A stretch of 60,796 nt of DNA, the filler included, from Hausera hauseri (lineage: Eukaryota), in the NCBI GenBank assembly GCA_046269625.1. It is 11 parts of 11 records of this genome, joined end to end, with 100 filler letters (N's around TTAATTAATTAA, not from the genome) between each part and the next. Parts side by side here need not be neighbours in the genome. Positions count along the whole stretch, not along the records: positions 21,414 to 31,003 come from JBJURY010336603.1; 10 more parts are not named here. One strand, given 5' to 3'. The first letter of the stretch is position 1. Each line of letters begins with the position of its first letter. The position numbers and the translations under genes were made by a program. This document shows, piece by piece, positions 21,314-59,004 of the stretch. Under the pieces are notes generated by a model. That model was not told the origin of the DNA. It made no database searches and worked only from the letters and a program-made list of their open reading frames with translations.

Positions 21314-21414
21314 NNNNNNNNNNNNNNNNNNNNNNNNNNNNNNNNNNNNNNNNNNNNTTAATTAATTAANNNNNNNNNNNNNNNNNNNNNNNNNNNNNNN
21401 NNNNNNNNNNNNNA

Positions 21415-23777
21415 AAACGACCAGTCGGAAGACCAAGAAAAATAAAAGAAGTAGACTATAACGCAGATCTGATTAGGGAACTGAGACAACTATGAGTACC
21501 CACTCCAAGTTCAGATAACGAAGAATTGATAGAACTAATGAGAGATTTAATTAGGATAGTTAATTATACGGGACTACAAGGTGACATACTATCCGAGAAA
21601 GAAAGACTAATATATAATATAGCACGGACCATAAAAACTTCGCGATTTAAATTATCTAAAAGCACCCTCTCTGACGAAACAGTGATCAACAGAATTATGA
21701 CAGATAATACGACGGAAGAATTAAGGAAAGTCTTCATATATTTGGCAGTAAAAACTAATCCTCTCCGAAAAAATGAAATTGAAAGATCAATCGGGTTAGC
21801 TAAGAAAGCTGTGAGAAGGGTGCCTAAAGAAATAAAATGGGCCAAACTGTTTGAAAAAGAGTACAATGTGAAAAGGACTAATAACTTAGAAGACATGGTG
21901 CGGAACATCTCCTCACGTAAGGGGAACGAATCTAATTGGTTAGTCAATCTATTAACAATAATGATGCTAGTAAAACAAATAGGAGCAGTCACTATATACG
22001 ACTGCAATAAATTCAAGATGGGTCAGAGATATTCTCTAATGGATCTGGAGGCGTGCGAAGATGCCCGACCACACAAATTAGAAACCAGGGAGAAGAATTA
22101 CTTCTTATATCAACAACAAGAGCTGATATCATTAGACAGAATGGAATGCATGTTGCGACGATCTCGCAGAATCTTCCACTATGGGTTAATACACGGACAT
22201 TCTTCAATAATCAAACCGACAACTCCTCCAGTTCCCATGAACTTGGAACGACAGCACTGCAAACAAGCTAAAGAGACTGGAAGAGTACAATGGGACAATA
22301 TGGAATTAGAAATGCAAGCTGGTAAAATAATTAGAGCATACAAAGTGGTAGCCGGAAGGTTAGACATGCATACTGGACACTGTAGTGGAGCTGAATATGA
22401 TACTGGCAAAGGATTAGAACCAAATGTAGTAGTTGTGGATTTCTACGAATCAGAAATGAGAACACAGAAAGTAATGTTTCATAGCGTCACCAAGTTATAT
22501 ACGGAGAATCAGAAATGCCATTTACAAGATGGAACCTGTGCTTCTAGGAGCTCGGTTATAATATGGGAACCTCCCTCAGGAAGAAGCTGTAATTTTAAAA
22601 TTAAAGAACTTAAGTTTAATGAGACCACTGGAAAACGATACGTGGATAAACTGGATACCAACTCAAGGAAGCGTGAGGATGTATTGGAACATCTTACGCC
22701 CACCATATTAATCGCCGATCAACATGGACTAAAATTTATCAAGAATGAAATGATGTCACGTTGTTATGTTGTGATGTTTGCTACTAACTATGAAGCGTTC
22801 TTCGTAGCCGAGACTGAGATAAATGCGAGGACTTATAAGCTGGAAACACAAGATATCCGGATTGAGGACTATTTGGAAAATATAGACGATTATTCCTATT
22901 ACAAAGGACAAACTGTAATAACTGAGTTATACCACAAAATGATAACGAATGACTGTAAACTGGATTCTGAGATCATGAGGACAAAACGGGCTCTTACATA
23001 TGCCAATCCAGAACTGGCTTCTCCAATAATTCCCATGAAAGAAGGAATTTTCGGCCGAGTTATAGGCGAAGTACTATTAACTTATGAATGCGAAAAGAGA
23101 GATGTACCTATCAATGTGGAAGAGAAACGATGCATCCAGGAACTCCCAGTTATTTATCAGAACGTTCCTAGCTTATCTACACTATTAACGAGAGTATTAT
23201 TGGATAATGCAACCCAATTTACTGTCCTTAAAGATTGTAAAGCGAGCTTAGGAGAACCCAGGTTTAGACGTAGTGAGACAGACTGGGTCAGTTTACCGAA
23301 TGGAGGTATTACTGCCACCCCGAACAAATTAACAGGGACAAATCTTGCAAAAGAAATTACGGACGATAAATTTCAGGACACTTCATCGAAAGGCATATAT
23401 AGGCCTAAGGAGATTGAAGCCTTCAGACAGTTTCTCGCCTTTTCATAACAACGAACACATGAATTAAACCGAGCCATGGCCTCCGTAGTAGATGATACCC
23501 GATATCAAGCTAAGTGGGAATTTCTCCTTGGTGCTAATTACTACCAAAGAGTGACTTCAGAAATGTTGTACAAGATTTGGGAAGATTTTTAATTTTCGGT
23601 CAAGCTGCATCTGGATTCTTAGCCATCTACTTCTTAGTACAGTTAATTAAAGCAGTAATCCAGGCTATTATAAACGGATACGAAATATTCACATTGACAG
23701 GATTCTCCTGTAAGATTCTAATTGCAATTATCACACCTTTCGGAAAAATGCTCAAAGCTTACGAAGAAAACCGATGA
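21415..23777 (+). pseudogene. env: AT-hook + helical region + chuvirus/Monjiviricetes-like envelope fusion glycoprotein
   Basis: KRPVGRPRK in frame upstream of ORF 21526; hydrophobic LLTIMMLVKQIGA then IYDC...YSL.DL..C; GRVIGEVLLTYEC, CIQELPVIY, GIY, and TM FGQAASGFLAIYF. Stops at 21493 and 23446, frameshift near 23570. Confidence 0.8.
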
Positions 23778-24419
23778 AAAAACTATGTAGAACGCCATTT
23801 CGGATACTATAATCGCAAACGACGAGGAAAACCGTCAAATCTTTATGGACGTAAAAATAAAAGAATGGTAACACGAAAAAATGATTCGGATGATGACGAG
23901 TTCAAGGGAGGAGAAGGGAATTCTAGAGTAATGCTACACAGGACTTACGTACCGATACCTATCATCCCACCAACTGAGCCAATACAGGAAGATTGCTATC
24001 AGAAATCAGTCATATTCTATAGATCTGATATCTACCGAAAACCCATGGACCATGAAGACCCTTATGGGAAAACAAAACAATATGGGGTATTACGGAAAAT
24101 GAACGTTATCAACATGGTACCAACAGAAAACGACCACGGAATATTATACTCAAAAAGTATACCTCGTCACATAGAATCGAAATCAACGATTTAGGAGAAC
24201 CCGAGGTGATGCTCAATCTCAGGTCCCTTACCTCAAGAACCGCTCATTGACGACCGCGTCACGGAAATAACAAATAACGATTTGTACCCGAATGGAAAAT
24301 TAAGACAATTAAGGCAGGATATCATTTTATCACCAAAAATAACGATAATTGGACACTGAGTCTCCACTATCAAACGGCCAAAGATAGGTTCGAATTTCTA
24401 TGGAACAGTAGCGGAAGGG

Positions 24420-24720
24420 AGACCTTTCGCTAAAATACACATCGAAGATTGGGAAGTGTACGCACTAATCGACACAGGATCAGAAAAATCGTTTATAAAA
24501 TATGAATCGATACCAACCACATTGCGAGATCAGTTATGTCCACCCGCATCATTGGATCCCGGCAGCGTAGGAGCATTCGGACAGGTATCAAAGCCGAAAT
24601 TTAAGTGGACCCCTACAGTTTATATGATGGGCCAAGCAATTCCACATGAATTTGCAGTAACGGACTAATTAACAGATGACGTAGTACTGGGTTGTGACGT
24701 ATTAAAACAGATACCAGGTA
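24420..24720 (+). pseudogene. Retropepsin aspartic protease
   Basis: ALIDTGSEKSFI ... VVLGCDVL; one internal stop. Confidence 0.88.
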
Positions 24721-25139
24721 TGGCAATCGATGTGCATAATGGAAAATTAATTGAGCTCGAACCAATAAAAGGAACCATAGTAATAAAGGAATGGAAATCA
24801 GGCGAAGTATGGATTCCAGTAGATGAGGACATTCCGCCTAGAACTGAAATAATAATTTTTGCGCAGATTCGTCAAGATGAAGATCTACTGGTATATTTCA
24901 AACTGCAAGAGAATATCGATCCAAATATCATGCTTAGTAATATTCTATGTAGAGTAGTGACGGGACTAATACCCATCAGATTAGTGAACTGTGCACCAAC
25001 TCCCGTACGATTGCACTGTAACACTACTCTAGGTCACACTTGTAGGGTATCGGCGATAACAATTGAAGAAAAACCATACAAGTGCGCTGAATTTTCACCT
25101 CATGTTGAAACCAAATTCTCTTCCAAAGTGTATTGCAAA

Positions 25140-26530
25140 TTCTACGAATTATTATGTAAGTATAGCTCAATAATTGCACAAAATGAGGAAGATATAGGCA
25201 GAGCAAAAGTCCTGAGATTAACGATTCCATTAAGGAAGAAACCCGGCTCAAATGACAAAATCGATCTAGAGAAACAGAAAATGCCCAAGTGGTACCCGCC
25301 TCCTCATTCATTGAGACTAGAGATAACTAAAGAAGTAGAGCGAATGTTAAAGGCCGACATAATTCAACCAAGCTACGGATCATGGTGGTCGTCCATACGT
25401 ATGGTTAAGAAGAAAGGAACTACAAAACATAGGTTTTGTATAGACTATCGGGCGCTGAACACGCTGATGATGAAATACTCGTTTTCCCTACCATCAGTAA
25501 ACTAAGCTTTAGATAGACTATCAGGAGCAAAATGGTTTACCACTCTCGACTTACAGTCAAGATACTGGCAAGTGCAAATCGAAGAAGATCGATATAAGAC
25601 AGCGTTCAAAACACACGATGGTGTATACGAATTTAATGTTATGCCCTTCGGCATCACCACAGGACCAGCTATCTTTACTAGAATGATGAATAAGATGCTC
25701 ATGGGACTTGATCATGCTTTCGCGTACTTAGACGACGTGATGATAGCATCAAAAACAGAAGAAGAACATTTAAAGGACATTGAAGACACGCTTATGCGAT
25801 TAGAACAAGCCGGATTAAAACTAAATCCGAAGAAATGTAAATGGGCACAGAATGCAGTATCGTACCTCGGACATAGTTGGAGAAGGAGGATCGAAACCAG
25901 ACAAATCTCTACTAAATAAGATATCCGATTGCATGGAGCCGCAGAACCAAAAAGAACTAAGACATTGGTTAGGCCTGTGTGGGTATTATGCCACTTACGT
26001 ACCAGACAACTCAAAAATTAATGCACCATTATATCGCTTACTCAAAAAAGGAACTAAGTGGAGATGGACAGAAGTGGAACAAAAAGCATTCGATGAAATG
26101 AAGAAAGTTCTGATAAGCGAACCAGTTTTAAGATACCCAGACTTTATCCTACCATTCATCATTAAAACAGATGCGAGCAAAGAAGGCATAGGATACAAAT
26201 CAGCTCAAAAACGCAAAGACGCAGAATTAGAACATCCAATAGCTTATGGTGGACGATCATTGAAGAAAGCGGAAAAAATTATTCAATCAGCGAATTGGAA
26301 ACATTGGCAGTTAAAGAAGCATTACGACACTTTAATGTCTATGTATATGGACAAAGGATTATCATAGTGACTGGTCACAAAGCAGTTACTACATTAAAAG
26401 GACGAGCTAATAATCCAACATGTAGATTAAATCGTTGGATCGCGGAAATTTCACGATATAATATTGAGTTCCAATATAAACCAGGTATCAAACACGTTGA
26501 CGCCGACGCTTTGTCAAGATTAAAAACAAA
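25140..26530 (+). pseudogene. pol: Reverse transcriptase + RNase H
   Basis: RFCIDYRALN, LDLQSRYWQ, KTAF, MPFG, AYLDDV, TDASKEGIG, ETLAV, HVDADALSR; stops and frameshifts present. Confidence 0.95.
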
Positions 26531-26779
26531 AACAAATGCAATAACCACATTGAAGAAACCACAACTCGAACAGTTGATCGAACGACAAAGAACTCTAATA
26601 TTGGACAAGACGATTAGAATTACAGCTAAGCAGGCTAAAGATACGGTTATTCAGCAAATTATCGAGTTCGTACAAAACGACAAAATACCAAAAGGATGAC
26701 AACTAAAAAAGCAACTACAGAAACATGGACATAAATATCATGCAACGAATCGAGACAATATTTTGTATTACGAGCAAAA

Positions 26780-27900
26780 AGGAAAAAGATTAATAGTTAT
26801 TCCGAAAGGGTTGCGCATAGAAGTACTTATGGCCGAGCACGATTCGTATTTAGCCGGACATGGCTTGGAAGAAGACATTAAAAAGGATATTAAATAAATA
26901 TTACTGGCCAAGCATCTATATTGATGTAAAGAATTGGGCAGGAGCGTGCGAAGTCTGCGCAACAAAACAAAAGAAAACAAAAGGCTACGTAGCAGAATTA
27001 AAACCCATAAACGTACCAGATAGGCCTATGCAAGCCATGTCTATGGATATAGTAGGACCCTTGCTTAAAACTCACAAAAATAAGAGATATATTTTGACAT
27101 GTGTGGACCGACTAACGCATTTCGTAGAACTAGTGGCATTATTAGATCAAAAGGCAGAAACTTTGGCCGACGCAGTAGCAAGAAAAATCATCTGCAGATA
27201 CAGACCACCAGAACAAATTTTGACGGACAGAGGAAGGAACTTTACAAGCGAATTATTTGAAAAAATTACCAAGATATTTAAAATTGAACGATTAACTACT
27301 ACCGCGTATCACCCCCAATGTAATGGGATGGTCGAGCGAATGAACGCAACAGTTATTCGGATTTTATCAACAGTAGTGGCAAAGGACCAAAAAGATTGGG
27401 TGAATTCTTAGAAGGAACACAGTTCGCGATTAATACGACCCCACATCCAGCAACAGGATTTACGCCGTTCTTTATGATGTATGGACGAGAAGCAATGTTA
27501 CCTACCGATCTAGGCATGACCCCATACGAGAAAAACCTCGAAGATTTGGAGCAAAACTTTGCCGAAGTCTTGCAAACAAGATTGCAGAAATGTTGGGAAG
27601 TTGCGAAAATATTATCACTTGAATACCAGGAACAATTTAAAAAACACTGTGATAAAAAGATTAGACCTCATGATCTGGAAAGGGGAAATGGGGTTTATAT
27701 ACATTACCCAGTTGCAAAGAAAGGTACATCCTTAAAATTGACACGTACCGGAAGAGGACCGCATGAAATCGTCCGTACAACTCCAAACACAGTCTATGTA
27801 AATAGAAATGGTAAAGAAGAAGTCGTATCGATTCAAAGAGTAGTTAATACAGATATAAGGCCATCTAAACATTACAATCTAAGACCGCGAGAAAACCTCA
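26780..27900 (+). pseudogene. Integrase (HHCC + DDE core + GPY/F-like tail)
   Basis: HDSYLAGH...CEVC; MDIVGP, TDRGRNF, YHPQCNGMVERMN; TPFFMMYGRE; GRGPHEI; YNLRPR. Confidence 0.95.
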
Positions 27901-28143
27901 TCAATTATCACCAGACCAATATCATACGTTCAGATAATCCTAGCACTATCGCTAATCGCCTCTTATTTTCCAAAAACACAAGCTAGATGATGGTACGACA
28001 AATCCATCTTAGAGAATGGACACGAAACGCAAAAGAATGAGATAAATAAAACCCAAAGACAAAAAGATATGACGTCGTTACAATCCATCACAGTTCCGTA
28101 TTATTCGATGAACTCTACATGCGTTGAATTTACAATATAGAAA

Positions 28144-29293
28144 ATGTACCATGATTCCGGAAGATTTCAAATTGCCCTAGATGATATACTGAAAAAAGGA
28201 ACAAGGAATTGTGATTTCGGACCTAGAGAGCATAGGAAATATTGCATTACGGAATTCGGGAATACTTATAACCTTACTTATCTGCTGTATTCATCAAAAT
28301 TATCTGAAATCTATAAAATGAAACCGCAATTTCAATTAGTTATTACTGCTTGGAACAAGCATCATGGGATAAAACCTAACGAAATGCTCCAGTCCATCAA
28401 CCCAGTAAAGCGGATGCTAAAAGAAAATATTGCCAGTAATTCAGAGAACCCAAGGACAATTGTGTTCAAGTAAAAACAAAAGGACGACTAATTAATGGTC
28501 GAGTAATCTCAGTCCGGTTCCTGAAAGAAAACATACAAGCTCACAATCAACAATACTGCCAAATCGACGTCGAACAACCAACAATATGTTGCAAGTTACC
28601 ACAGAAATATGAGTATAGAATTCAGCTAGATTTATATAAAATCAGAACCAACCAGTCAAGTATTTATTTGGGAAGCTACCGACTCAGAAATCCAGTTAAG
28701 TCGAATTTATTTAATATGACGACGAATGCGGAAATAAAGCCCATTATTCCGGCATTAATGAGAATTACTGCAGCGAATAAATCATCTCAAAAAGAACTAG
28801 AAATAATTCCGGTAAAATACCGGACACAGCAGCGTGAAATAACTTTTGTAGTAGAAAAAGCACTTAATTACGACGTGAGGATAAGCTGCCAAACATCCTA
28901 TAATAATCAGAAAGTGATATTGACAAAAGGGAATGATCGAATCAAATGTGCTTACTTGAAGCCTGAAACAGATTACATTGTACAAATGGAAGCAGAGAAT
29001 AGACAAAGTAAACCGTTCACGGTACGGACCTTAAACAAAATTGTTTCAATAAAATATTAACCGAGGACGAAGCGGAAGATGAAGTGACAACTACTGTTAA
29101 ATTAAAAAGTTCGACCGAACAAGCAATTTTTCCGTTAATATCGATTATTGAAACATTAATGTTCGCTCTCATAATCTTAATTGCGTTTTGCCGATTGATT
29201 ACCAAAAACTGTTGTATTAAGCGACATAAAATCTATGAGAGGGAATTAAGGGTGATGTTACCACAGGATGAAATTAATGATGAAATAACCTGA
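28144..29293 (+). pseudogene. Post-integrase ORF with fibronectin-III-like motif and C-terminal TM segment
   Basis: YLKPETDYIVQMEAEN matches FN3 L.P.T.Y.V.V.A.N; IIETLMFALIILIAFC is hydrophobic and followed by basic residues. Confidence 0.5.
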
Positions 29294-29394
29294 AAACTAC
29301 AGATTGGGTTATTCCACCATCAAACAAAGAATTGGTTCAAATTTCGAGCAATACTTTGTTTTAGGATCGACCCTTATTTTGTATTTTTTTCAGA

Positions 29395-30921
29395 ATGGTA
29401 AGTACGAGCAGCCGACCTAGAATCGACAATTTCTTACAACAGTATGGAACAGTTCTTATTCCAAAATCAAAAGGGATATACCACCGAATTAACGATGCAC
29501 TACGGATTGAAATACATGTCGAATACCGAAAAGTAACTGACATACCCAATGATCTAAAGGGTACTACCGAAGATAACCGCATGGTTTCACTATACGCAAT
29601 GAGAGATAATCACCAGGCTATGTCATATGACCTGAAAGAATTAATCCAAAGTAAAACGATCAGAATGGAAAACGTATTCATACACTTGGCAGACGGGGAA
29701 GTTTATTACAGAATTAAGAATCAACAATTGGACGGAAACGAAGGGCGCCAATATACATTCAGCACATTTAAAATAAGCGGAAAGGGTCTAGAAACCATTT
29801 ACTGCGGATTAGAATTTAGAGTAGCAGCGTTACCTGTCAAGTTGATGTTCGAAGTGACCTACAAAGAGAAGTGCAACTTAGGTTTGCCGGTTCTAGAATT
29901 TGAACAGACTCCAACAGAACAAGAAAAAGACAAACATAAGCAAGTGTATAGATTAGTTCAGGATGGACGTAATATAAGAATTATAGCAATAAATTGTGGC
30001 AGAGGAGATGATGGATATGGAATACCCATCGAGATATCTGTCAGAGAGAGAAATGGAACAGAGATATATTCAACGATCATAAACCCTCGAAAACATGTCC
30101 AGGAATCATATGCAGAAGTGACAGGGTTAAGAAAGGATCAGTTAATAAGCGGAACGGATATCTATCAAGTACGCTCAGAGTTGGAACATTGTCTGTATGG
30201 TTGCATGATAGCCGGCTATTACGTTCAACATGAGATGAAGCTATTAGGGATATCCGATGCAAATATTGCCGGATTTAGGGAAATAGCCTCTCATCCGATA
30301 GTCCAAGAACGAATGGAAAAGATTATACAAGAAAAAAACCGACCAACCGCACCAGAAGCCTTCTTTAAGATGACCATCGAAGCAATGAGCGACAACCCAA
30401 GTAAAATACCAAGACTTCTGACAGCTAGCCAACGGTCCAAATATTTACAAGAAATCTATCTCAAGCTGAAATGGGAACACGAATGGACTCCTAAGAACCC
30501 CACGCAAAATCTACGCAGCTCTATAAACCCTGAACAGATAGATGGAAAATATAGGAAAAATATAAAACTTTATTCCCCAATTCGAACCATTCAGTTTACG
30601 GACAAACATAGCCTCCAGATTACTGTACCAGAACAAAGAACTGAAAACAGGATGGAATCATTAACAATTAGAGAAAAGGAAAAGTTACTACCAGGAACAT
30701 CAAAGCCCCCAGAAGAACGAAGAGAAGAAATAGAACCAACAACAATAAGTAAAAGGATGAAAATAGAAGAGAAACCCAAACCCAGAAAAACATTATCCAT
30801 ATACAACTACCTATTCAAAAGGCGGAAGACAGACGAAGGACAAGAAATAGAAAACCCGCAGAATCAACCAAGCACTTCTCAAAACATTAAGCCGTTAAAA
30901 AAGGAATTAGGAATCCCATAA
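29395..30921 (+). CDS. 508-aa ORF containing a degenerate REX4/ISG20-like DEDDh exonuclease fold
   Basis: IIAINCG...EISVRERNGTEIYSTIINPRKHVQESYAEVTGL...L.GCMIAGY...HEMKLL parallels VAIDCE...RVS....G..IYDT.V.P...VTDY...VSGI...L.G.ILVGH....DL..L. Confidence 0.55.
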   Translation: MVSTSSRPRIDNFLQQYGTVLIPKSKGIYHRINDALRIEIHVEYRKVTDIPNDLKGTTEDNRMVSLYAMRDNHQAMSYDLKELIQSKTIRMENVFIHLADGEVYYRIKNQQLDGNEGRQYTFSTFKISGKGLETIYCGLEFRVAALPVKLMFEVTYKEKCNLGLPVLEFEQTPTEQEKDKHKQVYRLVQDGRNIRIIAINCGRGDDGYGIPIEISVRERNGTEIYSTIINPRKHVQESYAEVTGLRKDQLISGTDIYQVRSELEHCLYGCMIAGYYVQHEMKLLGISDANIAGFREIASHPIVQERMEKIIQEKNRPTAPEAFFKMTIEAMSDNPSKIPRLLTASQRSKYLQEIYLKLKWEHEWTPKNPTQNLRSSINPEQIDGKYRKNIKLYSPIRTIQFTDKHSLQITVPEQRTENRMESLTIREKEKLLPGTSKPPEERREEIEPTTISKRMKIEEKPKPRKTLSIYNYLFKRRKTDEGQEIENPQNQPSTSQNIKPLKKELGIP

Positions 30922-31449: not shown

Positions 31450-34400
31450 GCAATTAGAGGTGGAGAAATTCAAACTCAACAACTGCAAAGCGCAATATTA
31501 TGCACTTGAAGAATTTGAAAAACGTTAAAGGTGACAGGAAACAATGGTATCTGTCACATTGAGCCGTTCCGTATTGGGAAGGTTTTATTGCCAATGTAGG
31601 CAAAAAGTTGAATGAAAAAATCGCCAAATATACCGAAAATGGGTAGTGGATGGCGAATTTTATGAATTCTTACACTCGGCTTTATCATAAAAAAGTCCAG
31701 TGACGTGGTGTATTTGTCTGGACGATCATTTGTCTCTAAAGCGGTCTCTGGCGATAGTGAATGTACAAAATACTGACGATGACGACGAATGCTGTTTTTT
31801 GTACAGTATTCCGGCTGTACTGAAGTACAGCGAAGTGAACCGATATCACGCAAATTGTCCAAATAAGTATCGGCAGTATTTTTCGATTTGCAATTTGATG
31901 AATGCTGGATGCCGATGAAACTGAAAACCATTCCGGCTTTTAAAAGGTGTAATCCGGCGCTGTCAATCAACGTAATATAAATAGTATAATATAATAGTAT
32001 ATATATAATAGTTGAAATACCGGAAGACGAAGAAATTTATAATAATCCCCATGTGGACATAATTTATCGCAGTCGGAACCGAACGGACGCTCGGGAAATT
32101 TGTTGCTGTTAGAGCAGGCGGAAAAATTTCATTATGCAGCAGTGACAAATCTGGATAGTCTGTTGAACGTGGAGCATGACCATTTCATCAAAAAGCAAAT
32201 ACGATGCAAATGGTGTCCTGTATGTCTGCATGGATTCATATCGGAAATAACTAGGGAGAAACACGTTACGCTATGCAGGCAAGAAAATGTGCATCATGCC
32301 TGTTAAAAAGGAGCTCGAATTCAGAGATAGGTCTAAAACGGACATTCCTGCATATATCGAAGCAGTTCTACCACGACACAATGTATACGATGAAAAGCAC
32401 GTTCCAATTGCCATTGGTACGTTGCTAGTACCAATAAAAACCGCCAGACAAACGCAGTATTGCATTTTCCATGGTTGGAACAGTGTACGTGATTTTCTGC
32501 AGCAGTTAGAAACCATAGTGGAAACGGAAGTCTCGCCGTGGTATCGCAACAATTGCAATAAGCCATTGATTTGGACAGACGAATATCAACCGTTGCTTTT
32601 CGCTGTCACCAACGAATGCTACCCGTGCCACATAATATTACCGTTTGATACACAGGAATGGCTCGTACGGGATTACGATCATTTTGCCGGTCGATACTTT
32701 GGGGCAGCATGCAATTCATGCAATTTAGCAAGGCGAGTGAGACCATTCCTGCCGGTGATCTTTCATAATTTCCGAGGTTATGACTGCCACCATATTCTCA
32801 AATAGGCAATTAACGGCTTTCCGCACTGGAAACTGTCCATAATTCCAACGACAATGGAGAAATACCTATCGCTGTCAGCAAGAGTAAACCGATTCCAGGT
32901 ATGCATACTTCATTTATTGCAATTTCTTAATGAATCATTGGCAAAGCTGGTAAACGCCTTGCCAGATGTGCCGATAGCACTTACGCAGTTCCCTGCACAT
33001 ATTGCAAGCAAAAAAGGCATATTTCTATATGACTTTACAACATCATATGAGCGACTCCGGAGAAGCATCGCAGGCATCGCAGATAATGAATATCGGAGAG
33101 CAGAAGAATCTTGAACAGAACTGGGCTATAGAAACATGTTGGATTACATGTCCAGTACCTTAAACTGGATGTGTACTTATTGTTCGATGTGTTTGAAGCA
33201 TTTCGGACCAAAGCGTTGGCGAAAGATAGGTTAAAGCCACTCAACTTTTATTCCATACCAGAAATGAGTTGGACGTCAGCTCTAATGTCACTGGATCGAG
33301 ACATTGAGCTGCTGCAAGACCCGGAAATGTACCGTCTGTTTGATGTTTGTATTCGCGGCGGCATGAAATTTGTCAACAAGCATCAGGTCCGTACTACCGA
33401 TACCGCATCACTGCTGAATATTGATATTAATAACCTGTAAGGCTAGGCGCTTTCGCAACCCTTGTCGTACGGTTCATTTGAATGGGTAGTCTACAGACAA
33501 GATCTGGACGACATAATTGTCAACCTACCACGAGCAGACATGTCAGGCTCAGTCGGATACCTGATAGAGGACGATCTCCAGACAGCAGATGATCTGCATG
33601 ACGTTTCGGACGATTTTCCGGTCGCACCATTTAACGAATGTCCGTCAGACTCAAAAGTGAAGAAACTGTTCATGACGCATAAACCGAAGTTGAATTACGT
33701 TGTCCATTGGCGTCTGCTACAGTTCTAAATGCAGCTCGGTGTACTCGTCACACAGTCGCATCGTGCAATCCGATTTTCTCAGGCTGCCATATTCAAGGCA
33801 TACATAGATGGAAATTCGGAGAAACGAGCCGCAGCTTGTATAAAGTTCGAAATGGACTACTGCAAGCGGAAAAACAATTCTGTGTGAGGAAAAACAGTGG
33901 AGAATCTGCAAAAGCCGCTCAGTGTACGACTATGCAATAGAAAAAAGCGGTTGGTCAAGTACACGATTAAGGCGCAGTTTCGGCGGTAAGTAGACTGCCA
34001 AAGGATTGGTTGCGGTGCTGTTAAACAGAGAAGAAGTCATTCTGTACCAGCCAAGTCACATCGCACAAGTTGTATTGGACCTGAGCAAGTTGCACATGTA
34101 TGAGCTACAGCATCGCGACTTGGCACGTTACCGACAAATGTCTGACGGCTGAAATATTGACATAATTTCCGGTGACACAGACAGTTTTATCCTGTTGCTG
34201 AAAAACGTCAATCGCGAACAGCTATTGCAGCAAATGCAGTCAGATGGATTACTGGACACTTCCAACTACTCACCGGATCATTCGTTATACAGCAGCGCGA
34301 TCACCAATAAAATCGGCTGCTTCAAGGATGAAAGTGAAGGTCGCGTTCAGTATCGGGAATGGATATATCTACGGCCAAAATATTACAGCCTTCTAACTGA

Positions 34401-34652
34401 CGGTGGATCGAAAATGCGCGCCAAAGGAATTCAGTTGGCCCAGATGGAAATAAACCACGTGATTATCGCCGTGTCTATGAAGAAGAAGAAGGCCAATCAA
34501 AGTCTATTGTGTCACAAACGATCATAAAATCGACTGAGCACCAGTTTTATAGTGTGATCAATACAAAAGTCGCTTTATCATGCAACGATGATAAGCATAA
34601 GCGGGTGTTGCGAAAAAAGAGTTGGGCGTACGGACATTGGCGTTTGGAATAA
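31450..34652 (+). pseudogene. Near full-length protein-primed PolB (Polinton/Adintovirus-like) with endonuclease-VII-like insert
   Basis: ENGSGW, IVNVQN..D..CFLYSI, RDYDHFAGRYFGAACNSCNL, FHNFRGYDCH, IRGG, DINNL, KNNS..GKT, SGDTDSF, LDTSNY, LRPKYYS, DDK...YGHW; many stops and frameshifts. Confidence 0.9.
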
Positions 34653-40655: not shown

Positions 40656-42199
40656 GGTTTATTCTCACTAATGTAGGGTGAGAATACCTCCAAAGCGAAA
40701 ATTACTGCTAATAATTCCTTTTCTATTACCGAATATTTCGTTTGATGTTTGTTTAGTTTCTTTGATGCATATGCCACAGGATGCTCCTTGCCATCCTTAT
40801 CTTTTTGCGATAATACTGCTCCAACTCCATAATCGCTTGCATCCGTTGCCAATATAAAAGGTTTAGTCATGTCTGGATACATGAGAATAGGAGCATTTAG
40901 CAATCTTTCTTTTAAATCATTGAAGGCATTTTGACAATCATTATTCCATAGTACCTTTTCTAGATCCTCCCGTAACAATTCGTAGAGCGGTCGAGCTATC
41001 TTACTAAAATTCTTTATGAACCTACGATAATAATTTACCAATCCCAGAAATTGACGTAATTCTTTTACTGTCGTTGGCTTTGGAAAATCTTTTATTTTTC
41101 CTACTAATCTATCCTGAGGCTTTACGCCATTTCTGTCCACTCGATGTCCGAGGAAATCCACTTCCGCTTGGGCGAACATACATTTCTTTGGGTTTATTTT
41201 CAAACCCATGATTTCACATCGATCAAAAAGGTCCTGTAAATCCTTCAGATGTTGTGGAAAGTCCGACGATGCTATTATCACATCATCGATATATACCATG
41301 GCATGTGGTGCATCCAAGAGTAATAGTTCCGTTCCTCGTTGAAATGTTGGCGGTCCATTTTTTAATCCAAATGGCATTCTATTAAATTCCCATAGCCCTT
41401 CTCCTATTGAAAATGCTGTTTTAGGTTTATCTTCTTCTCTTACCTCTACTTGCCAATATCCCTTTTGTAGATCGATGGTGGTAAATATTGTTGCACCATG
41501 TAACCTATCCAATATCTCATCGACCCTTGGTAATGGATAAGTGTCGGTTTCTGTTACCTCATTAAGTGCCCTATAGTCAATACAAAATCTCATAGTACCG
41601 TCTTTCTTTTTGACCATCACCACTGGAGCCGTCCATGGCGAGCAGCTTGGTCGTATTATTTTATTCTCTCTCATTTCTTTGATAATTTTTCGGGCCTCTT
41701 CCTTTTTATCGTACGCCAGTTTATAAGGCCGTTTTTTAATCGGCTTATCTTGTCCCTCCTTTAACTTAATAACATGTTGGATGATATTCATTGTCCCTAA
41801 GTCATAATCATTTTGGGCAAACCGGTTATTATTGTTTTCTAATAATTGGCACAGCATTTCTTTTTCGTCCTCTGATAATATCGTAGAATTTTGCAATTTT
41901 TCTCTCCAATTAATCATATTCATTTTCTTTTCCTTATTCCGGTTAACATCCAATTTTAATTTTTTTGACATCATCTTTTCTATCTTATCTGTATCTGAAA
42001 TAATTGACTTGGTCTCTTCTCTGTGTATTTCTTCAATTGGCGTTATTACCCCAAGTCTAGTATTCATTTTTAATCGTTTTTCTTTCGTTCCTATGTTACA
42101 GATTCTTAAGTGGACTCTTCCATTCCTTATTTGGTCCACATGTGGTGCCACTAAGATATCGTATTTCTCCATTACATAGAGAGATGGCTCAAAATACAC
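40656..42199 (-). CDS. pol: Ty3/Gypsy reverse transcriptase + RNase H (truncated by contig end)
   Basis: SPWTAPVVMVKKKDGTMRFCIDYRALN, IDLQKGYWQ, MPFGLKN, VYIDDV, TDASDYGVGAVLSQ, YSVIEKELLA; offset from the upstream ORF at an A8 run. Confidence 0.95.
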
Positions 42200-45100
42200 T
42201 GATCTTTCCGGGATTTTTTTTCTATTCTACCAGGCACTATTATTTCTGAACGTGGTGGGATGATACTATCTTCTATGAGTGAGACGGTTTCTTCGTATCT
42301 CTTTTTGTTAAACTTTCTAAGTTGGCCTGTCTTAACGTCAATATATACATCCTCTAACTGGTGCAATACGTCGCATCCTAACAGTATTTCGTTGGTTAGG
42401 TTCTCGGCTACTCTTATAGCATGCTTTATCACTTGGTCACCAATTTTAATCTTAGCATCTAAAACCAATTTTATCTCCTCCTCCATTCCAAATGCTCCTA
42501 CATTAATTAAGGTCTCTTCGAGCTTTCGTAGTTTACTTTTTAATTCTTTGGGAACTTGGCTTCTTCCCATAATTGTGGTTGTTGAACCCGTGTCTATTAG
42601 GGCAATTAATGGATGTCCATTTACTTCTATTTCTATCTCAGGTCTCGTATATAAGGCTTGGTTTTTCGAACTTACCGTACAAGTAACTTCACGATTATAT
42701 TGTGTAGGGTTCTCGTCGTAATCCTGTTTTATTCTTAGGATTTGATATGTGGGATACATTCCCCCGTGTTTTACATACTGCGGAGCCGAGGGGTTCATCG
42801 GCAATTGTTCATTGTATACCTGCCCGTGGTATTCATCCGCGGGATTTAACTGAGGTAAGTCGGTTACTAACTTCCTTTGGTATTTCTGTTTACGGGGTTT
42901 CAGCGACAACCTTTTTAATCCTTGAATGTACCTATTACTTTTAGGTCTCGTGTCTACATCATCGTCGCCGCTCCTTCCATTCAAGGTGCTGTAAGGCGAA
43001 TTGTTATCGGCCCTGTAATTTCCTCCTTTAGTTATTTTCTTCTTCCACCTTGCATCATGGTTTGCTAGAAAACAACTGGCTACTGCTGGTATCACCGCTA
43101 TAAGAATTTTCCACGAACATCCGACTGCTGCGTGTATTCCGTAGGCTTTTCCTAGCGCCGTAAATACTGTCCGTATGGCACTTATGATAAAATATATTGC
43201 CAAAAATCCCGATGCTGCCTGACCAAAATATAAAAACTTTCCCCACATTCTTTCCATCACATTTCTTGTAACCTTCTTCAAATAATCCTTTCCCATTAAA
43301 TTTTCCCAATGTGGGGAACCTTCTCCATCCCACATTACTTTTCTTGTTAGTTCCGTTATTATCCGTTGTCTTTGTTGAGGGAATAATAACATCCTTCGAT
43401 AATCCTCTAAATTTTGTTGCGTGTAAATACCTCCTTGGGATATACCCGTTAGTGGTTCGAATTTTTGATTTCTTTGTAAACTGATCAGACTTAAAGTTTC
43501 TGGTCTTGTCACTTCTTCTCGCTTTGGCATTCTAAACCACTTATCGTTTATCTTAAACATAGGTGACATATTAAATGTGCAATTGTCAAGTTGTGTGGGT
43601 CTTGCTTTAGCATCTAGTAATATACGAGTTACTGGTATTACATATCGAGGTTCCATATTATAGATCACCGGCAATTCTGAGGTACATTCTTCAGTCTCTC
43701 TAATTGCTACCTCTACCTTCTTGCATTCAATTGTTATTAATACTTCACCCATTACTCGCCCAATTACTCCGTCTCCGAAGGGCATTACCGGGGCCACCAT
43801 ATCTGGGTTCGTTATTACTAACGCCATCTTATTGCGTATTATTTCGTAATTCAATTTACATTCGTTCAGTATTATTTCTCTGTACAAATTTCTTATTTCT
43901 CGTCGTACATAATTAATCAAATAGTCTATTTTATTATCAAAATATTGGGTTACTTTTATGTCTTTCTTATCTATTTTTGTTTTTGCTTCTGCTACCTCTC
44001 TCGAAGAGAGATATAGTCCTTTGTAATTAGTCTTAAACATTTCTTCATTACATTTATTTATTACTCCCATAATTCTAAAACGCATCATTTCCTCGGGGTT
44101 CTGTGAATATACTACTGTTGCCACTTCCATCATTTTCACTTCTTTGACCCCTTCTCTATAAGTTGCTGTTTCCTTCTCAGCCGTTTTCCCAACCGTTTTA
44201 TTAAATTTCCCTTCTTTCAACAAAGTCAGGTGGCAACGGTTCGCGGATATTTCCCATGTCATCTTAGATTCCCCTGTATCACACTCTCCACTTTCGTATT
44301 CACATTCATTCATTATTGTCATGAGTCTCGTTTGTGAATCGAACAATCCTTCGTACTCCTTTAGTTGTACTTGATAATCCTCGATTGCCACCGTTCTTGG
44401 AGCAATTGTTCCTCCAACATCGTAATCTACTCCCTTACACGTACCTTCCATTGTCTTATCTATTCTTCCTGCTCTAAAAATTCTAGTATACTTTATCTTT
44501 CCTCGTACAGCTGGTATCTGAGCATTCTGTACTGTTATGATTCCGATTTTAAAAGCATCTTGGCATTCAGCCCGTGATATTATTATTGGCTCAAAAGGGG
44601 TCGTGGGTTCAATAATTGCTGAATTTCCTGAATAGTATGCGCAATTGAATAAGAAAAACGACTTCTTTACATAGCACTCTCGTATCTTAACTTTTATGAA
44701 TTCTGACTCCTGATACACCCAGTATCGGTGACCACTGGTTGTTGTTAATTGCTCTGGGTCCGCTTCAGGGCATTTCTCTAGGTCTATTAGCGAATACTTT
44801 TGCCCTTCTTTTGGCTTTGAACAATCATAAGCTACCATTCCCATAGCCTTAGGCATACATAGCGAGGCTATAAGTAATATTTGTAATACCTCCATAAACG
44901 ACATTCCTCCGAGACCGTGCTTATTAGCACTGGGTTGGGTTGTGGTTGGTCTCTCTGGTATTTCTCTCTCTGATCTTAGCCTGCCATTCATTAGACTAGG
45001 TATCCATCCTCCCCTGCATTGTGCCCAGTTTTCTAAAGTATCACGTAAGATTTTAACAGTGGTTCTTATATTTCGTTCAATTTCCTCCAGATTCTGTGTC

Positions 45101-45561
45101 TGATAATTTGTTACTATTACTTTATATATTAGATAAGCTATCACCGTAACAACTTTTTCCCTAGTGATCCCCGTAGCAAGCATCTTCTCTACTATATCCT
45201 GCTCATGTACTTCGTTAATTCGTTCCTCATTAATGTTTTCGTAAAATTGTCTGCTAACTCTCAGCATGCTATTCCGTAGCATTTGAAATAACTCGTCGGG
45301 GATAGTTATCTGCATATCAAATGATGCGAATGACGTATGAAGTTTGGCTAATAGCGTTCTTAGTAATGGATCTATATCCACCGATTCCGGTGTCGTATCG
45401 GTTCCTGCCAACAATAATCGTCGTACAATTTCCTCATTTCTATCCTTTTTATTTCTAATGTCACTTATCTTTGTTCCTTTTGGTCTTCCTTTTCTTCCTT
45501 TTTCTGTCTGTACCGTAACATCTTGAGTATCAGCGAACAATGGTCCTTCCCTTTCTTGAGG
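42172..45561 (-). CDS. env: Uninterrupted polyprotein: AT-hook - helical region - signal peptide - chuvirus-like fusion glycoprotein - TM - aspartic protease; open to contig edge
   Basis: KGRKGRPKG; LQILLIASLCMPKAMG|MVAYDC...YSLIDLEKC; GRVMGEVLITIEC, CTSELPVIY, GGIYT, FGQAASGFLAIYF; LIDTGS ... ILLGCDVL in the same 1122-aa frame. Confidence 0.88.
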   Translation of the reverse strand, partial: PQEREGPLFADTQDVTVQTEKGRKGRPKGTKISDIRNKKDRNEEIVRRLLLAGTDTTPESVDIDPLLRTLLAKLHTSFASFDMQITIPDELFQMLRNSMLRVSRQFYENINEERINEVHEQDIVEKMLATGITREKVVTVIAYLIYKVIVTNYQTQNLEEIERNIRTTVKILRDTLENWAQCRGGWIPSLMNGRLRSEREIPERPTTTQPSANKHGLGGMSFMEVLQILLIASLCMPKAMGMVAYDCSKPKEGQKYSLIDLEKCPEADPEQLTTTSGHRYWVYQESEFIKVKIRECYVKKSFFLFNCAYYSGNSAIIEPTTPFEPIIISRAECQDAFKIGIITVQNAQIPAVRGKIKYTRIFRAGRIDKTMEGTCKGVDYDVGGTIAPRTVAIEDYQVQLKEYEGLFDSQTRLMTIMNECEYESGECDTGESKMTWEISANRCHLTLLKEGKFNKTVGKTAEKETATYREGVKEVKMMEVATVVYSQNPEEMMRFRIMGVINKCNEEMFKTNYKGLYLSSREVAEAKTKIDKKDIKVTQYFDNKIDYLINYVRREIRNLYREIILNECKLNYEIIRNKMALVITNPDMVAPVMPFGDGVIGRVMGEVLITIECKKVEVAIRETEECTSELPVIYNMEPRYVIPVTRILLDAKARPTQLDNCTFNMSPMFKINDKWFRMPKREEVTRPETLSLISLQRNQKFEPLTGISQGGIYTQQNLEDYRRMLLFPQQRQRIITELTRKVMWDGEGSPHWENLMGKDYLKKVTRNVMERMWGKFLYFGQAASGFLAIYFIISAIRTVFTALGKAYGIHAAVGCSWKILIAVIPAVASCFLANHDARWKKKITKGGNYRADNNSPYSTLNGRSGDDDVDTRPKSNRYIQGLKRLSLKPRKQKYQRKLVTDLPQLNPADEYHGQVYNEQLPMNPSAPQYVKHGGMYPTYQILRIKQDYDENPTQYNREVTCTVSSKNQALYTRPEIEIEVNGHPLIALIDTGSTTTIMGRSQVPKELKSKLRKLEETLINVGAFGMEEEIKLVLDAKIKIGDQVIKHAIRVAENLTNEILLGCDVLHQLEDVYIDVKTGQLRKFNKKRYEETVSLIEDSIIPPRSEIIVPGRIEKKSRKDQCILSHLSM

Positions 45562-48419: not shown

Positions 48420-48526
48420 TATTAAGCAACTTTAGAGAAATGTTATCATGAATTTTCACATTCTTAAAGCTTACCTTTGTTTAAATAGTATGCATATATT
48501 TATACTCTTTTGTTTTCTTTTTCAAA

Positions 48527-48885
48527 TTACGGATAAGTTGGAATATCGAACAGTCATTAAATTTCGCACCAAAAAGGGGTTAAACAGCAATGAAATCCTA
48601 CATGAGTTGGTGGTCGTATGCCAAGCTGAGGCTTCTTCAAGACACACAGTCGAGCAGTGGCATCATGAATTCCTACATGGCAGAGTCAACCTCCAAGATG
48701 ATGAACACACTGGAAGGCCAACCACCAGTAGTTCAGAGCAAAATGTTCTTGCTGTTCAGCGCATGGTGATAAATGATTCTCTGGTGAAAGTCAAGGCGAT
48801 TGTAGAGACTCTTCATATTTCAACGGGTACAGTTCACTCCATCCTCCATGATCATCTAAAGATGAGTAATGTTTGTGCCCAATAA
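48527..48885 (+). pseudogene. Mariner (Mos1-like) transposase N-terminal HTH fragment
   Basis: EYRTVIKF...W..EF..GR.NLQDDEHTGRPTT...LHISTGTVHSILHDHLKMSNVCA; catalytic domain absent. Confidence 0.85.
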
Positions 48886-56777: not shown

Positions 56778-59004
56778 TCCGGATATAATAAAATGCTTTT
56801 TGCAGGAAAAAACTTTATTATAACCGATCATTTTGAAAATTGCAAACTTTGCGCAGTTGTACTGACTTGTTCCCATCGCTATATTCGATTCCCCGCTCCA
56901 AGCTTAACAGTAACTAAAGTGACAATCTGCACATTTTTGTAGAGTTTCGAGGACAACAGACTCAATACAATATTCAGTAGAGAACGGTAATCAGTCGCGT
57001 GTTAAAAATTTATCAAGAGTCGTTTCTATTTTGCTGTTAAATGTTGCATTAGTAACAGAAAATTGCAAATTGTCTAAATGATAAAAGTCGTCCACAGAAG
57101 AAGAATGCTTCAAAAGATAGAAGCGAATTTAATGTAGCATTTGAACAGTCTCAGCGTGTGAGGAAATATTTTCATCATCATGATCACAGGTACTGTTATC
57201 ATCAGAATGATCGTTCACGATGGTCTCACCAGTTGATGGCATCAGAGAATCGATGATGGCAGCTTCACTCGAAGTTTCTACGGTGGAAATGTCATCGTCA
57301 ATTGATGCGAACAGCCCTGTTCTCATTGTATCTGGCAAAGAGAACGCATCACGCAGGCGGTCAAAAATGTTTCTCACGTTAGCAGAATCATCTGAAGAAA
57401 CCGTTTTATCGGAGGAAGTTGTGAGAAGAGAAACGGAGTCATCACGAAAGCCAGCAGAACGGAAACAATTGACGATTGTTTCAACTTGAACGCGATTCCG
57501 TGAAGTTTTCGGCCAATGTAGTGTTCTCATAAGGTCTGTCTGGAAGGGTTGCTTGGCATCATGTGCAATGAGCAGCTTAACCATCAGCTGCTTGCGATAA
57601 TGCGTTTTCAGTGACGAGATAATTCCGCAATCTATTGGTTGCATCTTGAAAGTGGTGTTCAAAGGACGAAACACAAGGGTAACAGATCGAAACGAATCGA
57701 GTTTGGGATGGCAAGGCAGCTGACAACAATGGGAAGGATATTTCTATTAGCAGCACTAATTTGACAATCAATCCTTCGAATGTGTCTTCAAAAATAGCAA
57801 AAGTCATCCATGCATTATCATTGCTGGCATACTCCAAAAAAACGCGCTGATTGCAAAACGCTCTGGGATGCGCAGATTTACCGATGACCAGCAGTGGTAA
57901 TTTCTCGCCTGTCATGCTGGCAGCCACGAAGGCAGAGATCCTCTCTTTGGAATGCTTTCCTCCATGGCATTTCTCGCCGGCAAAGTCAAGGGTGCGCTGA
58001 GGAGTGAATTTCCAGAATATTCCCGTCTCATCTCCACTGAATATGTCTGCGGGGAGAAATGTTGCAGCAGACTGGGAATGACGCCTGAAAATCAGTTGTG
58101 TGAGGCTTCTTCAGAAACAGCACAACCGTCACCACACATCAGTTTAGATGTGACATTGTGTCGATGTTTTCATCTTTGGATCCACGACATGAAGATTGTC
58201 GAATCTCCTTCTGATGTTTTGCTGCTTCGAAGAGGAAAGAGAAACGACCGGGCCTTGGTCTTCAGAAACTCGTCATTAACGGCTATTTTGGAAGTGCCGC
58301 ACGTCTTGAACCATTGGAGAAGATCGTTATCAACTTCAGCGAACTTGTCTGCAGCACGGCATTTTTTGCCGTAGAGGAAAAACTGCCAGAAAAAATCTCT
58401 GGACTCAATCACTTCTCGCCATTTCACGATGACAAAAAGGATGCATTGCTTTATTCCAAACTCTTCAGCAATGTCACCCTGTTTCCTCTTGAGACATGCT
58501 GCTTTCTTGCTGTCATCTTCGACAGCTTGAAGAATTTTCAACTTTACATCAGTTTTTAGTGACTTTCGCTTGGTATCCATTGTGCAGTAAGAATGACTCC
58601 ATTTTTAAGATGAACATGGGCTGCTGGAACATAAAACTACTGCAGCACAGTGTATGTAAAGTTCGCATTGTCTGTGTTGGTACTTATGAGCTCATTGCTA
58701 AGCTATGCTTATATCATTGTCACATTGTTGAAGATCATAGCAATAAGCAAAACTTGAAGGCTTACCTGTAAAGCAAACTGAAAGTGATATACACAGCAAA
58801 TTTTATTATAGCCGATTGCATTTCTGTTTATTTTTGATTCAGCTGACAGAAAAAAAATTTAATATAACCGATTTTTATTATAGCCAATTTCATATTAACC
58901 GAATAAAATGCATGCATTGTTGTAGTAAGATGTTGTTGCCACCAAGTAATTTCACTACATCCAATTTTTATCATATCCGACTTTACTATATCCGGAAGTT
59001 ACTG
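56778..59004 (-). mobile_element. Tigger/pogo-family DNA transposon with decayed transposase (57129-58580)
   Basis: MDTKRKSL..KLKIL (HTH_psq), LLQWF (CENP-B HTH), DETG, GEKLPLLVIGKS..PRAF, NAWMT, PLNTT..MQPIDCGII. TIR TA|CAGTAACTTCCGGATATA at 59004, matching TCCGGATATA at the contig start; TTATTATARCCGA subterminal repeats. Confidence 0.88.

Follow-up and report, generated by a model that had tools for sequence, protein, structure and literature searches.

A decayed, multi-copy Ty3/Gypsy element of Burro-like layout in Hausera hauseri, with a predicted second membrane protein behind the integrase

Order of parts in two diverged copies

We analysed a 60,796-nucleotide stretch of DNA from Hausera hauseri (GenBank assembly GCA_046269625.1), called the window here, which consists of 11 contigs of 4–10 kb with N-spacers between them. 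The copy under study is a retroelement on contig 5 (21414–31003, plus strand; JBJURY010336603.1). It was compared with a copy on contig 8 (40656–45561, minus strand), the "first" contig of a first-pass annotation of the window. Contig 5 carries, in this order, an AT-hook, a helical spacer, a signal, a Monjiviricetes-type glycoprotein (Env), a transmembrane (TM) segment, protease (PR), reverse transcriptase (RT), RNase H (RH) and integrase (IN), and the element extends 3 kb beyond position 27900. Pfam matches followed the order Monjiviricetes_fusion, RVP, RVT_1, RT_RNaseH, Integrase_H2C2 and rve; the PR–RT–RH–IN order is that of Ty3/Gypsy elements (Metaviridae). We read contig 5 as a decayed member of a Ty3/Gypsy family with many copies.

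The first-pass annotation had described a second, protein-divergent contig with common motifs and with the same AT-hook–Env–PR–RT–RH–IN order. All three motifs (FGQAASGFLAIYF, GRV.GEVL and ELPVIY) occur in both contigs, and the two polyproteins aligned collinearly in tblastn, with 31.8% identity over 553 aa in env (E 2e-82), 31% over 168 aa in PR, 35.7% over 353 aa in RT and 42.7% over 143 aa in RNase H. At the DNA level the contigs shared a single 80-nt match of 70%, as against 31–43% identity between the proteins. The Monjiviricetes_fusion match had an E value of 1e-40 in contig 5 and 7e-95 in contig 8. The common order holds through RNase H; contig 8 terminates within RNase H, so that integrase is visible in contig 5 alone.

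On contig 5, the AT-hook (GRPRK; 21415–21447) is open at the 5′ end of the contig and is followed by an in-frame stop at 21493. The helical spacer (21496–21906) lies where the family has a Bcl-2-like domain and is degenerate in this copy. An internal signal-peptide-like hydrophobic stretch (21937–21987), found at the same position in relatives, precedes the conserved [AI]YDC start of the glycoprotein ectodomain (21988–23580; PF24664, Monjiviricetes_fusion), which contains a stop at 23446 and a break near 23580. The env membrane anchor (FGQAASGFLAIYF) and a hydrophobic helix follow at 23595–23745, and then the retropepsin (24420–24760; LIDTGS, D at 24471). A conserved spacer between PR and RT (24783–25082) occupies the place of a dUTPase-like region in the planarian element Burro; compared with dUTPase, its best match had an E value of 1.4, and there was no Pfam match. 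RT (YLDD at 25725) and RNase H span 25250–26520, and integrase (H2C2, core and a C-terminal part up to YNLRPR at 27873) spans 26800–27890. On contig 8, the first open reading frame (ORF; 42172–45561, minus strand, open at its 5′ end) contains an AT-hook, a Bcl-2-like domain (45297–45004), a signal, env (44892–43039), a TM segment and protease; RT and the start of RNase H (40657–42223, minus strand) lie downstream of one frame break near 42220 and run to the contig end. No long repeat that could be a long terminal repeat (LTR) was found in contig 5, which is truncated at both ends.

The contig 5 copy is broken. It had been described as having one frameshift, followed by TM, linker, PR and RT core in one frame with in-frame stops only. 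That break was located near 23580, and downstream of it the parts named are indeed read in the same frame, interrupted by six stops as far as ~25872; to these must be added the stops at 21493 (just behind the AT-hook), 23446 (in env) and 26697, and four more frame breaks near 25873, 26275, 26860 and 27400. Contigs of two public runs were matched to both copies at 80–85% likeness; they are short and none spans the element, and they therefore report cover, not linkage or copy number. At least three of the five env-to-integrase breaks sit where many of these contigs differ from contig 5 (among the 12 listed of 28 indel rows), and the damage therefore looks private to this copy. Contig 8 has a single break, near 42220. 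A programmed frameshift at this site was considered and set aside, since the site is read in frame in contig 5 and in eight outside proteins and two contigs bridging the break each show a gap relative to the contig 8 copy.

Glycoprotein, upstream domains and relatives

Outside relatives are cited by the handles P0001 and so on and L001 to L004. A search with the contig 8 ORF gave 1258 matches; among the best 150, the top ones were long polyproteins and most others were free glycoproteins of 600–700 aa at ~21–27%. In all 15 distinct outside elements that run past env, one or more retropepsins lie behind env in the same ORF, and seven others end inside env. A single unbroken ORF from Gag through env, PR, RT and IN to a further signal and TM segment is present in P0002 (4057 aa), L003 (3703 aa) and L004 (2693 aa). 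Intact relatives encode Gag, host-like domains, Env, PR, RT, RNase H, IN and a second membrane protein in one frame. These relatives were selected through env, and the set is uninformative on the share of RT relatives without env.

Fourteen cysteine columns are conserved over 15 envs, and contig 5 retains 12 of them. The envs nearest to that of contig 8 (24–39%) are borne by retroelements, as compared with 22–24% for three free glycoproteins. Where other copies differ from the env of contig 8, the third codon position accounted for 11 of 18 listed sites (p 0.014; among the 40 best-supported of 783 sites). A sequence search of env against solved structures gave no match. We regard env as a predicted glycoprotein B (gB)-type fusion protein. 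One relative, P0134, has a PF24664 glycoprotein fused behind immunoglobulin domains, possibly a domesticated or attachment-fused form.

Env and pol were compared in the 13 elements that have both env and RT–RNase H. The two trees shared 6 of 10 splits with no strongly supported conflicting split in pol (5 of 7 in an earlier comparison of 10 elements), and the env and RT–RNase H distances were correlated (Mantel rho 0.81; 0 of 4999 permutations). Contigs 5 and 8 were sisters in the env tree (99/98). A grouping of contig 5 with P0008 in a first, RT-only tree (88/90, on a long branch) vanished when RNase H was added to RT. P0008 itself is a full env–pol retroelement polyprotein labelled "Flavobacteriaceae bacterium" (a metagenome-assembled genome) at NCBI and is most likely animal DNA in a bacterial bin.

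Contigs of the two public runs covered all 30 bins of contig 5 (30,264 and 2,826 contigs) and all 30 bins of contig 8 (10,098 and 1,054), mostly at 80–95% identity, as would be seen for a large, diverged repeat family. Because the same two runs cover both contigs, these are probably two subfamilies of one genome, not of two hosts. There was no RNA run among the two listed public runs carrying the sequence. A metagenome scan with a single protein gave no match, nor did profile scans of viral and prokaryote contigs. The first-pass annotation had argued for an old, stable family and against a chance insertion or a chimeric contig, and had proposed comparing env and RT trees; the 15 outside env–retropepsin fusions, the correlated env and RT distances and the diverged contigs covering env and pol alike bear it out. 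Its order of parts and its old-family reading are right, and both are already in print.

Upstream of env, the spacer of contig 8 matched Pfam Bcl-2 with an E value of 8e-6, under the curated cut-off, and also matched BOK. A seven-row family profile matched Bcl-xL (E 3e-5) across BH1 and BH2. The Bcl-2-like domain was present in P0001, P0002, P0003, P0005, P0014, L001, L002 and L003, and the same profile search did not find it in ten other sequences examined. A ubiquitin-like domain was found in P0002, L001 and L003 and on contig 1 (E 1e-11); contig 5 and contig 8 both begin downstream of where it would lie. Gag likewise lies outside both contigs; it is in frame in P0001, P0002, L001, L003 and L004, and is also present on contig 1. 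There (833–5284, plus strand), a site resembling an LTR end and primer-binding site (833–850) is followed by Gag with CCHC (80 bits against the family profile), a linker of ~1000 codons without domain assignment and, at the 3′ end of the contig, a helical and ubiquitin-like block (4814–5218). Contig 1 is probably the 5′ half of an element of this kind. The gag-bearing fragments on contig 1 (1–5284) and contig 4 (16797–21313, minus strand) are related, with 72–78% DNA identity in patches. By eye, P0014 and P0016 seemed to carry exonuclease-like motifs upstream of env, but these scored no better than shuffles, stayed below profile thresholds and were rejected. Among the relatives, P0156 contains one more signal-like segment in its interior and as many as six protease-like domains, and ankyrin repeats occur in P0002 and P0156.

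Predicted second membrane protein and 3′ ORF behind the integrase

The first-pass annotation overlooked a module behind the integrase. Directly 3′ of integrase, at the same position as in relatives, lies a second signal-peptide-like stretch (27916–27984), followed by a beta-rich ectodomain of ~350 codons in three pieces (27991–29057): a first part without a match and two FN3-like repeats, one weak (28443–28730) and one clear (28731–29057). A Thr/Glu stalk, a TM helix (~29135–29195) and a short tail complete the module (29042–29290). A signal-like and a later anchor-like segment were present in 10 of 10 elements that reach past integrase (contig 5, P0002, P0004, P0008, P0016, P0156, P0160, L002, L003 and L004), and an FN3-like part in 8 of them. 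The module is in frame with integrase in the nine outside elements. A profile built from five relatives scored contig 5 at 28.5 and 29.9 bits, whereas the best of 500 shuffles reached 8.4 and 10.3; it also found L002 and L003, neither of which was used in building it, and gave no match in the post-integrase region of P0016 or L004. In L002, a complete second signal–FN3-like–TM module lies between protease copies within the polyprotein (4763–5300).

Sequence matches in the PDB were to FN3-containing or FN3-derived chains in 8 of 8 and 5 of 6 cases (best E 0.007 and 0.035), among them EphA2, Tie2, PTPRF, IL-20R1, pikachurin and contactin. The top Atlas matches for the module were fn3 clusters (0.90). 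FN3 chains also headed the non-significant Foldseek list obtained from a poor structural model. All lines agree, each weakly, that the ectodomain is FN3-like, and the second membrane protein is likely to be an attachment protein.

Farther 3′, an open ORF of 508 aa (29395–30921) contains an ISG20/ISG20L2-like DEDDh exonuclease domain (~29980–30400). A pyrimidine tract and a CAG one base before the ATG at 29395 form a splice-acceptor-like site (29376–29397). The ORF matched ISG20L2 with an E value of 0.007, and Atlas gave RNase_T at 0.91. L002 and L003 each have a homologue in the corresponding position (E about 1e-11); these match RNase_T at E 1e-5 and 1e-3, and ISG20L2 at E 3e-8 in L002. The catalytic residues are replaced in the contig 5 ORF, whereas L002 and L003 retain D-x-E, D and H-x4-D. 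Judged by these motifs, the nuclease is likely active in L002 and L003 and an RNA-binding pseudo-enzyme in contig 5. A YAG within 3 nt before the first ATG was found for 6 of 7 3′ ORFs in three elements, compared with 107 of 864 background ATGs (p 2e-5). Since this looser rule was adopted after a stricter one, the enrichment is a lead for spliced expression of the 3′ ORFs. Further 3′ ORFs, short and coiled-coil-like, occur in L002 (12241–12665) and L003 (11375–12040 and 13589–13850); an acceptor-like AG immediately precedes the start of each.

Comparison with known elements and proposed way of life

The order env before pol is known, and in this respect the contigs only add a member to a published group. 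Planarian Burro has Gag–Ubl–BCL2–env–PR–dUTPase-like–RT–RH–IN in one ORF according to the part of its description seen (Arkhipova and Yushenova 2019, PMC6431247). The text on Burro/GYPSM1 describes one polyprotein with Gag-CCHC, ubiquitin/SUMO-like, BCL2-like, mononegavirus-related env, PR, RT, RH and IN parts, as well as ankyrin repeats, accessory ORFs and very many copies, all of which have counterparts in the window copies or in their relatives (PMC6431247). Env lies in frame between gag and pol in this family too: env and PR form one ORF in contig 8, contig 5 is collinear with breaks, and Gag to IN is unbroken in P0002 and L003. The BCL2-like part stands just before env in contig 8 and relatives, and the match of the contig 5 spacer is marginal. 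The likeness to Burro is one of layout, as published. Burro-type elements are giant (over 25 kb). Unlike Burro/GYPSM1, in the part of the source seen, MATH, BIR and midasin-like parts were not seen here, where the 5′ half is unlinked. The passages seen name neither a post-integrase membrane protein nor an exonuclease, and Fig. 2A of that article may show more (PMC6431247).

Errantiviruses of GAG–ENV–POL order with an env of the HSV/gB type (HSV, herpes simplex virus), Smed_errantivirus_1–6, resemble the present elements in env preceding pol and in the co-divergence of env and pol, as far as the accessible part of the report goes (Chary and Hayashi 2026, PMC13524379). The six env rows given for Schmidtea (type C1a, HSV/gB) have in common with contig 8, by eye, YQE[ST], C.TG.S, [YT]NY.G and cysteine spacing, whereas the bryozoan env rows lack those motifs and spacing (PMC13524379). 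In the published segment, the eight cysteines and the motifs match contig 8 by eye, and together with PF24664 they agree with a C1a gB-type assignment. The main text of that paper is without the words "Bcl", "AT-hook", "accessory", "polyprotein" and "Burro" (PMC13524379). In contrast to those errantiviruses, as presented in the portion seen, the contig 5 copy is broken; intact ORFs in near-identical copies are absent from the window, both of whose copies are broken, and this says nothing against the family.

From the parts consulted of the respective reports, the Gypsy-like elements Juno and Vesta of bdelloid rotifers also carry a DEDD exonuclease as an accessory ORF on the 3′ side (Rodriguez et al. 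2017, PMC5408684). There, however, an RNase D-like DEDDy ORF3 replaces env, whereas in contig 5 an ISG20/REX-like DEDDh ORF stands beside env and a second membrane protein (PMC5408684). These rotifer elements are the nearest precedent found for the 3′ exonuclease ORF. Mosquito BEL/Pao elements with a chuvirus glycoprotein show capture of the same Pfam glycoprotein family by an LTR element, but they belong to another superfamily and carry the glycoprotein after integrase (as in P0064, with DUF5641) and not before protease (Dezordi et al. 2020, PMC7642597). For such elements, neither a membrane protein of FN3 type nor an ISG20-like ORF turned up in a literature search that did not extend to figures or some key Burro papers; as far as found, the conserved second membrane protein and the 3′ nuclease are the new part relative to the published layout.

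Domain order, conservation and breaks are observations, and infectivity and all functions are inferences. With a probability of roughly 0.8, contig 5 is a decayed, multi-copy, Burro-type Ty3/Gypsy element that likely spreads as an enveloped particle, with the gB-type protein fusing and the FN3-like protein attaching. The positions of signals and anchors suggest that the polyprotein would be threaded through the endoplasmic reticulum (ER) twice. The internal signal before [AI]YDC would place the Env ectodomain in the lumen, and the anchor would return the chain to the cytosol for PR–RT–RH–IN; the post-integrase signal would then place the FN3-like ectodomain in the lumen, leaving Gag, the host-like domains and the enzymes cytosolic. 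Signal peptidase and retropepsin would release the parts, so that capsid, enzymes and both membrane proteins are made together at one membrane, and particles may bud with both the gB-type fusogen and a receptor-binding FN3-like partner. Herpesvirus fusogens of the gB type depend on partner proteins to bind receptors. Freed into the cell, the Bcl-2-like, ubiquitin-like and AT-hook parts might weaken apoptosis or stress responses and attach to AT-rich DNA. Spliced subgenomic RNAs may make the 3′ ORFs, including the ISG20-like nuclease, which could trim element or host defence RNA.

Several results weigh against this interpretation. No LTR was found in a search of L001–L004, and the pol tree gave no support of its own to contigs 5 and 8 as sisters (not rejected, p-AU 0.31). 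An AT-hook was present in 8 of 18 sequences of one set and 1 of 4 of another. The contig 5 spacer scored 7.0 bits against the Bcl-2-like profile when shuffles reached 7.8, and its AlphaFold model was all-helical at a pLDDT (model confidence) of 48, with Bcl-xL only at rank 14 (Z 5.8) and no significant match in the fold search. The model of the FN3-like region had a pLDDT of 37 and no Foldseek match under E 0.001, Atlas recognition of the module was low (1491), and 461 of 500 shuffles did as well as the first ectodomain part, which had no match. Two of the 10 elements, P0016 and L004, carry an unrelated post-integrase ectodomain. The stricter acceptor rule, set first, flagged just 3 of 7 ORFs. 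Finally, with so many copies, multiplication may take place chiefly within the cell.

In the main rival account, the element moves only within the cell; Env and the FN3-like protein either hold the Gag–Pol precursor at the ER or have effects on the host cell (e.g., receptor interference or adhesion), and infectious particles do not leave. We consider it a possible but clearly less probable account. With a single ORF, Gag, Env and Pol have to be made 1:1 and tethered to the membrane, the post-integrase ectodomain is swapped in P0016 and L004 and duplicated in L002, as loosely constrained cargo might be, and the literature covered, in the portions seen, holds no transmission data for such elements. 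However, a 550-aa ectodomain whose 14 cysteine columns are kept over 23–39% identity, and which tracks pol, exceeds the needs of a tether.

It is unlikely that the gene for the FN3-like membrane protein and the ORF for the exonuclease are not working parts but neighbours or genes captured from the host. The loss of the catalytic residues in the contig 5 exonuclease would fit such a capture, as would L004, which is without such a 3′ ORF in its 500 nt of tail. Against this stand the in-frame position of the membrane module in nine outside elements, the exonuclease homologues that L002 and L003 have in the corresponding position, the 30 of 30 contig 5 bins, tail included, covered by many diverged contigs in both runs, and a 508-codon ORF that is open while the rest of the copy is broken. 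A chuvirus-like endogenous glycoprotein lying by chance beside an ordinary Gypsy element, or a chimeric contig, is highly improbable and is refuted by the in-frame env–protease fusions: free PF24664 proteins of 600–700 aa are abundant among the matches and the assembly is fragmented, but contig 8 and 15 outside elements have env and protease in one frame, the nearest envs are retroelement-borne and the trees agree.

Under the enveloped-particle interpretation, the conserved second membrane protein with its swappable ectodomain is a candidate for target-cell choice; the laboratory animal Schmidtea has hundreds of copies, natural intact ones among them. To our knowledge, surveys of Gypsy elements with an env look at no parts other than gag, pol and env. 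We tentatively suggest that Burro-type elements could be complex retroviruses of invertebrates that use two proteins for entry. A gB-type fusogen would lie between gag and pol and a separate, exchangeable FN3-like attachment protein behind integrase, both released from a single polyprotein, and spliced genes would include a captured ISG20-like antiviral nuclease that now serves the element; this broader proposal is doubtful. If it were true, the accessory ISG20-like nuclease and the Bcl-2-like domain would bring these elements close to complex retroviruses in host handling.

Other contigs of the window contain further sequences. On contig 3, 11247–11987 is a fragment of an animal MBOAT (lysophospholipid acyltransferase) gene with in-frame insertions of 14 and 17 codons, which read as short introns (~42 and 51 nt). 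Its best named matches (range 33–37%) were in flatworms (36–37%), a nemertean and molluscs, and in a tree it grouped (97/92) with a cestode on a long branch and an unnamed protein, at a distance from the other flatworms. A RING-finger-like ORF at 9397–9855 is truncated by the contig end. The broken pieces of a protein-primed-type DNA polymerase B and an Endonuclease_7-like protein at 32251–34527 (by eye; Pfam E 0.001) are likely a Polinton/Maverick-like relic. A mariner-like fragment lies at 48436–48885 (plus strand), and a decayed DDE_1 (Tigger/pogo-like) transposase at 57129–58604 (minus strand). Between them, a whole 7-kb contig (49726–56676) consists of a degenerate 4-nt repeat with the consensus TCGT in ~1740 copies.

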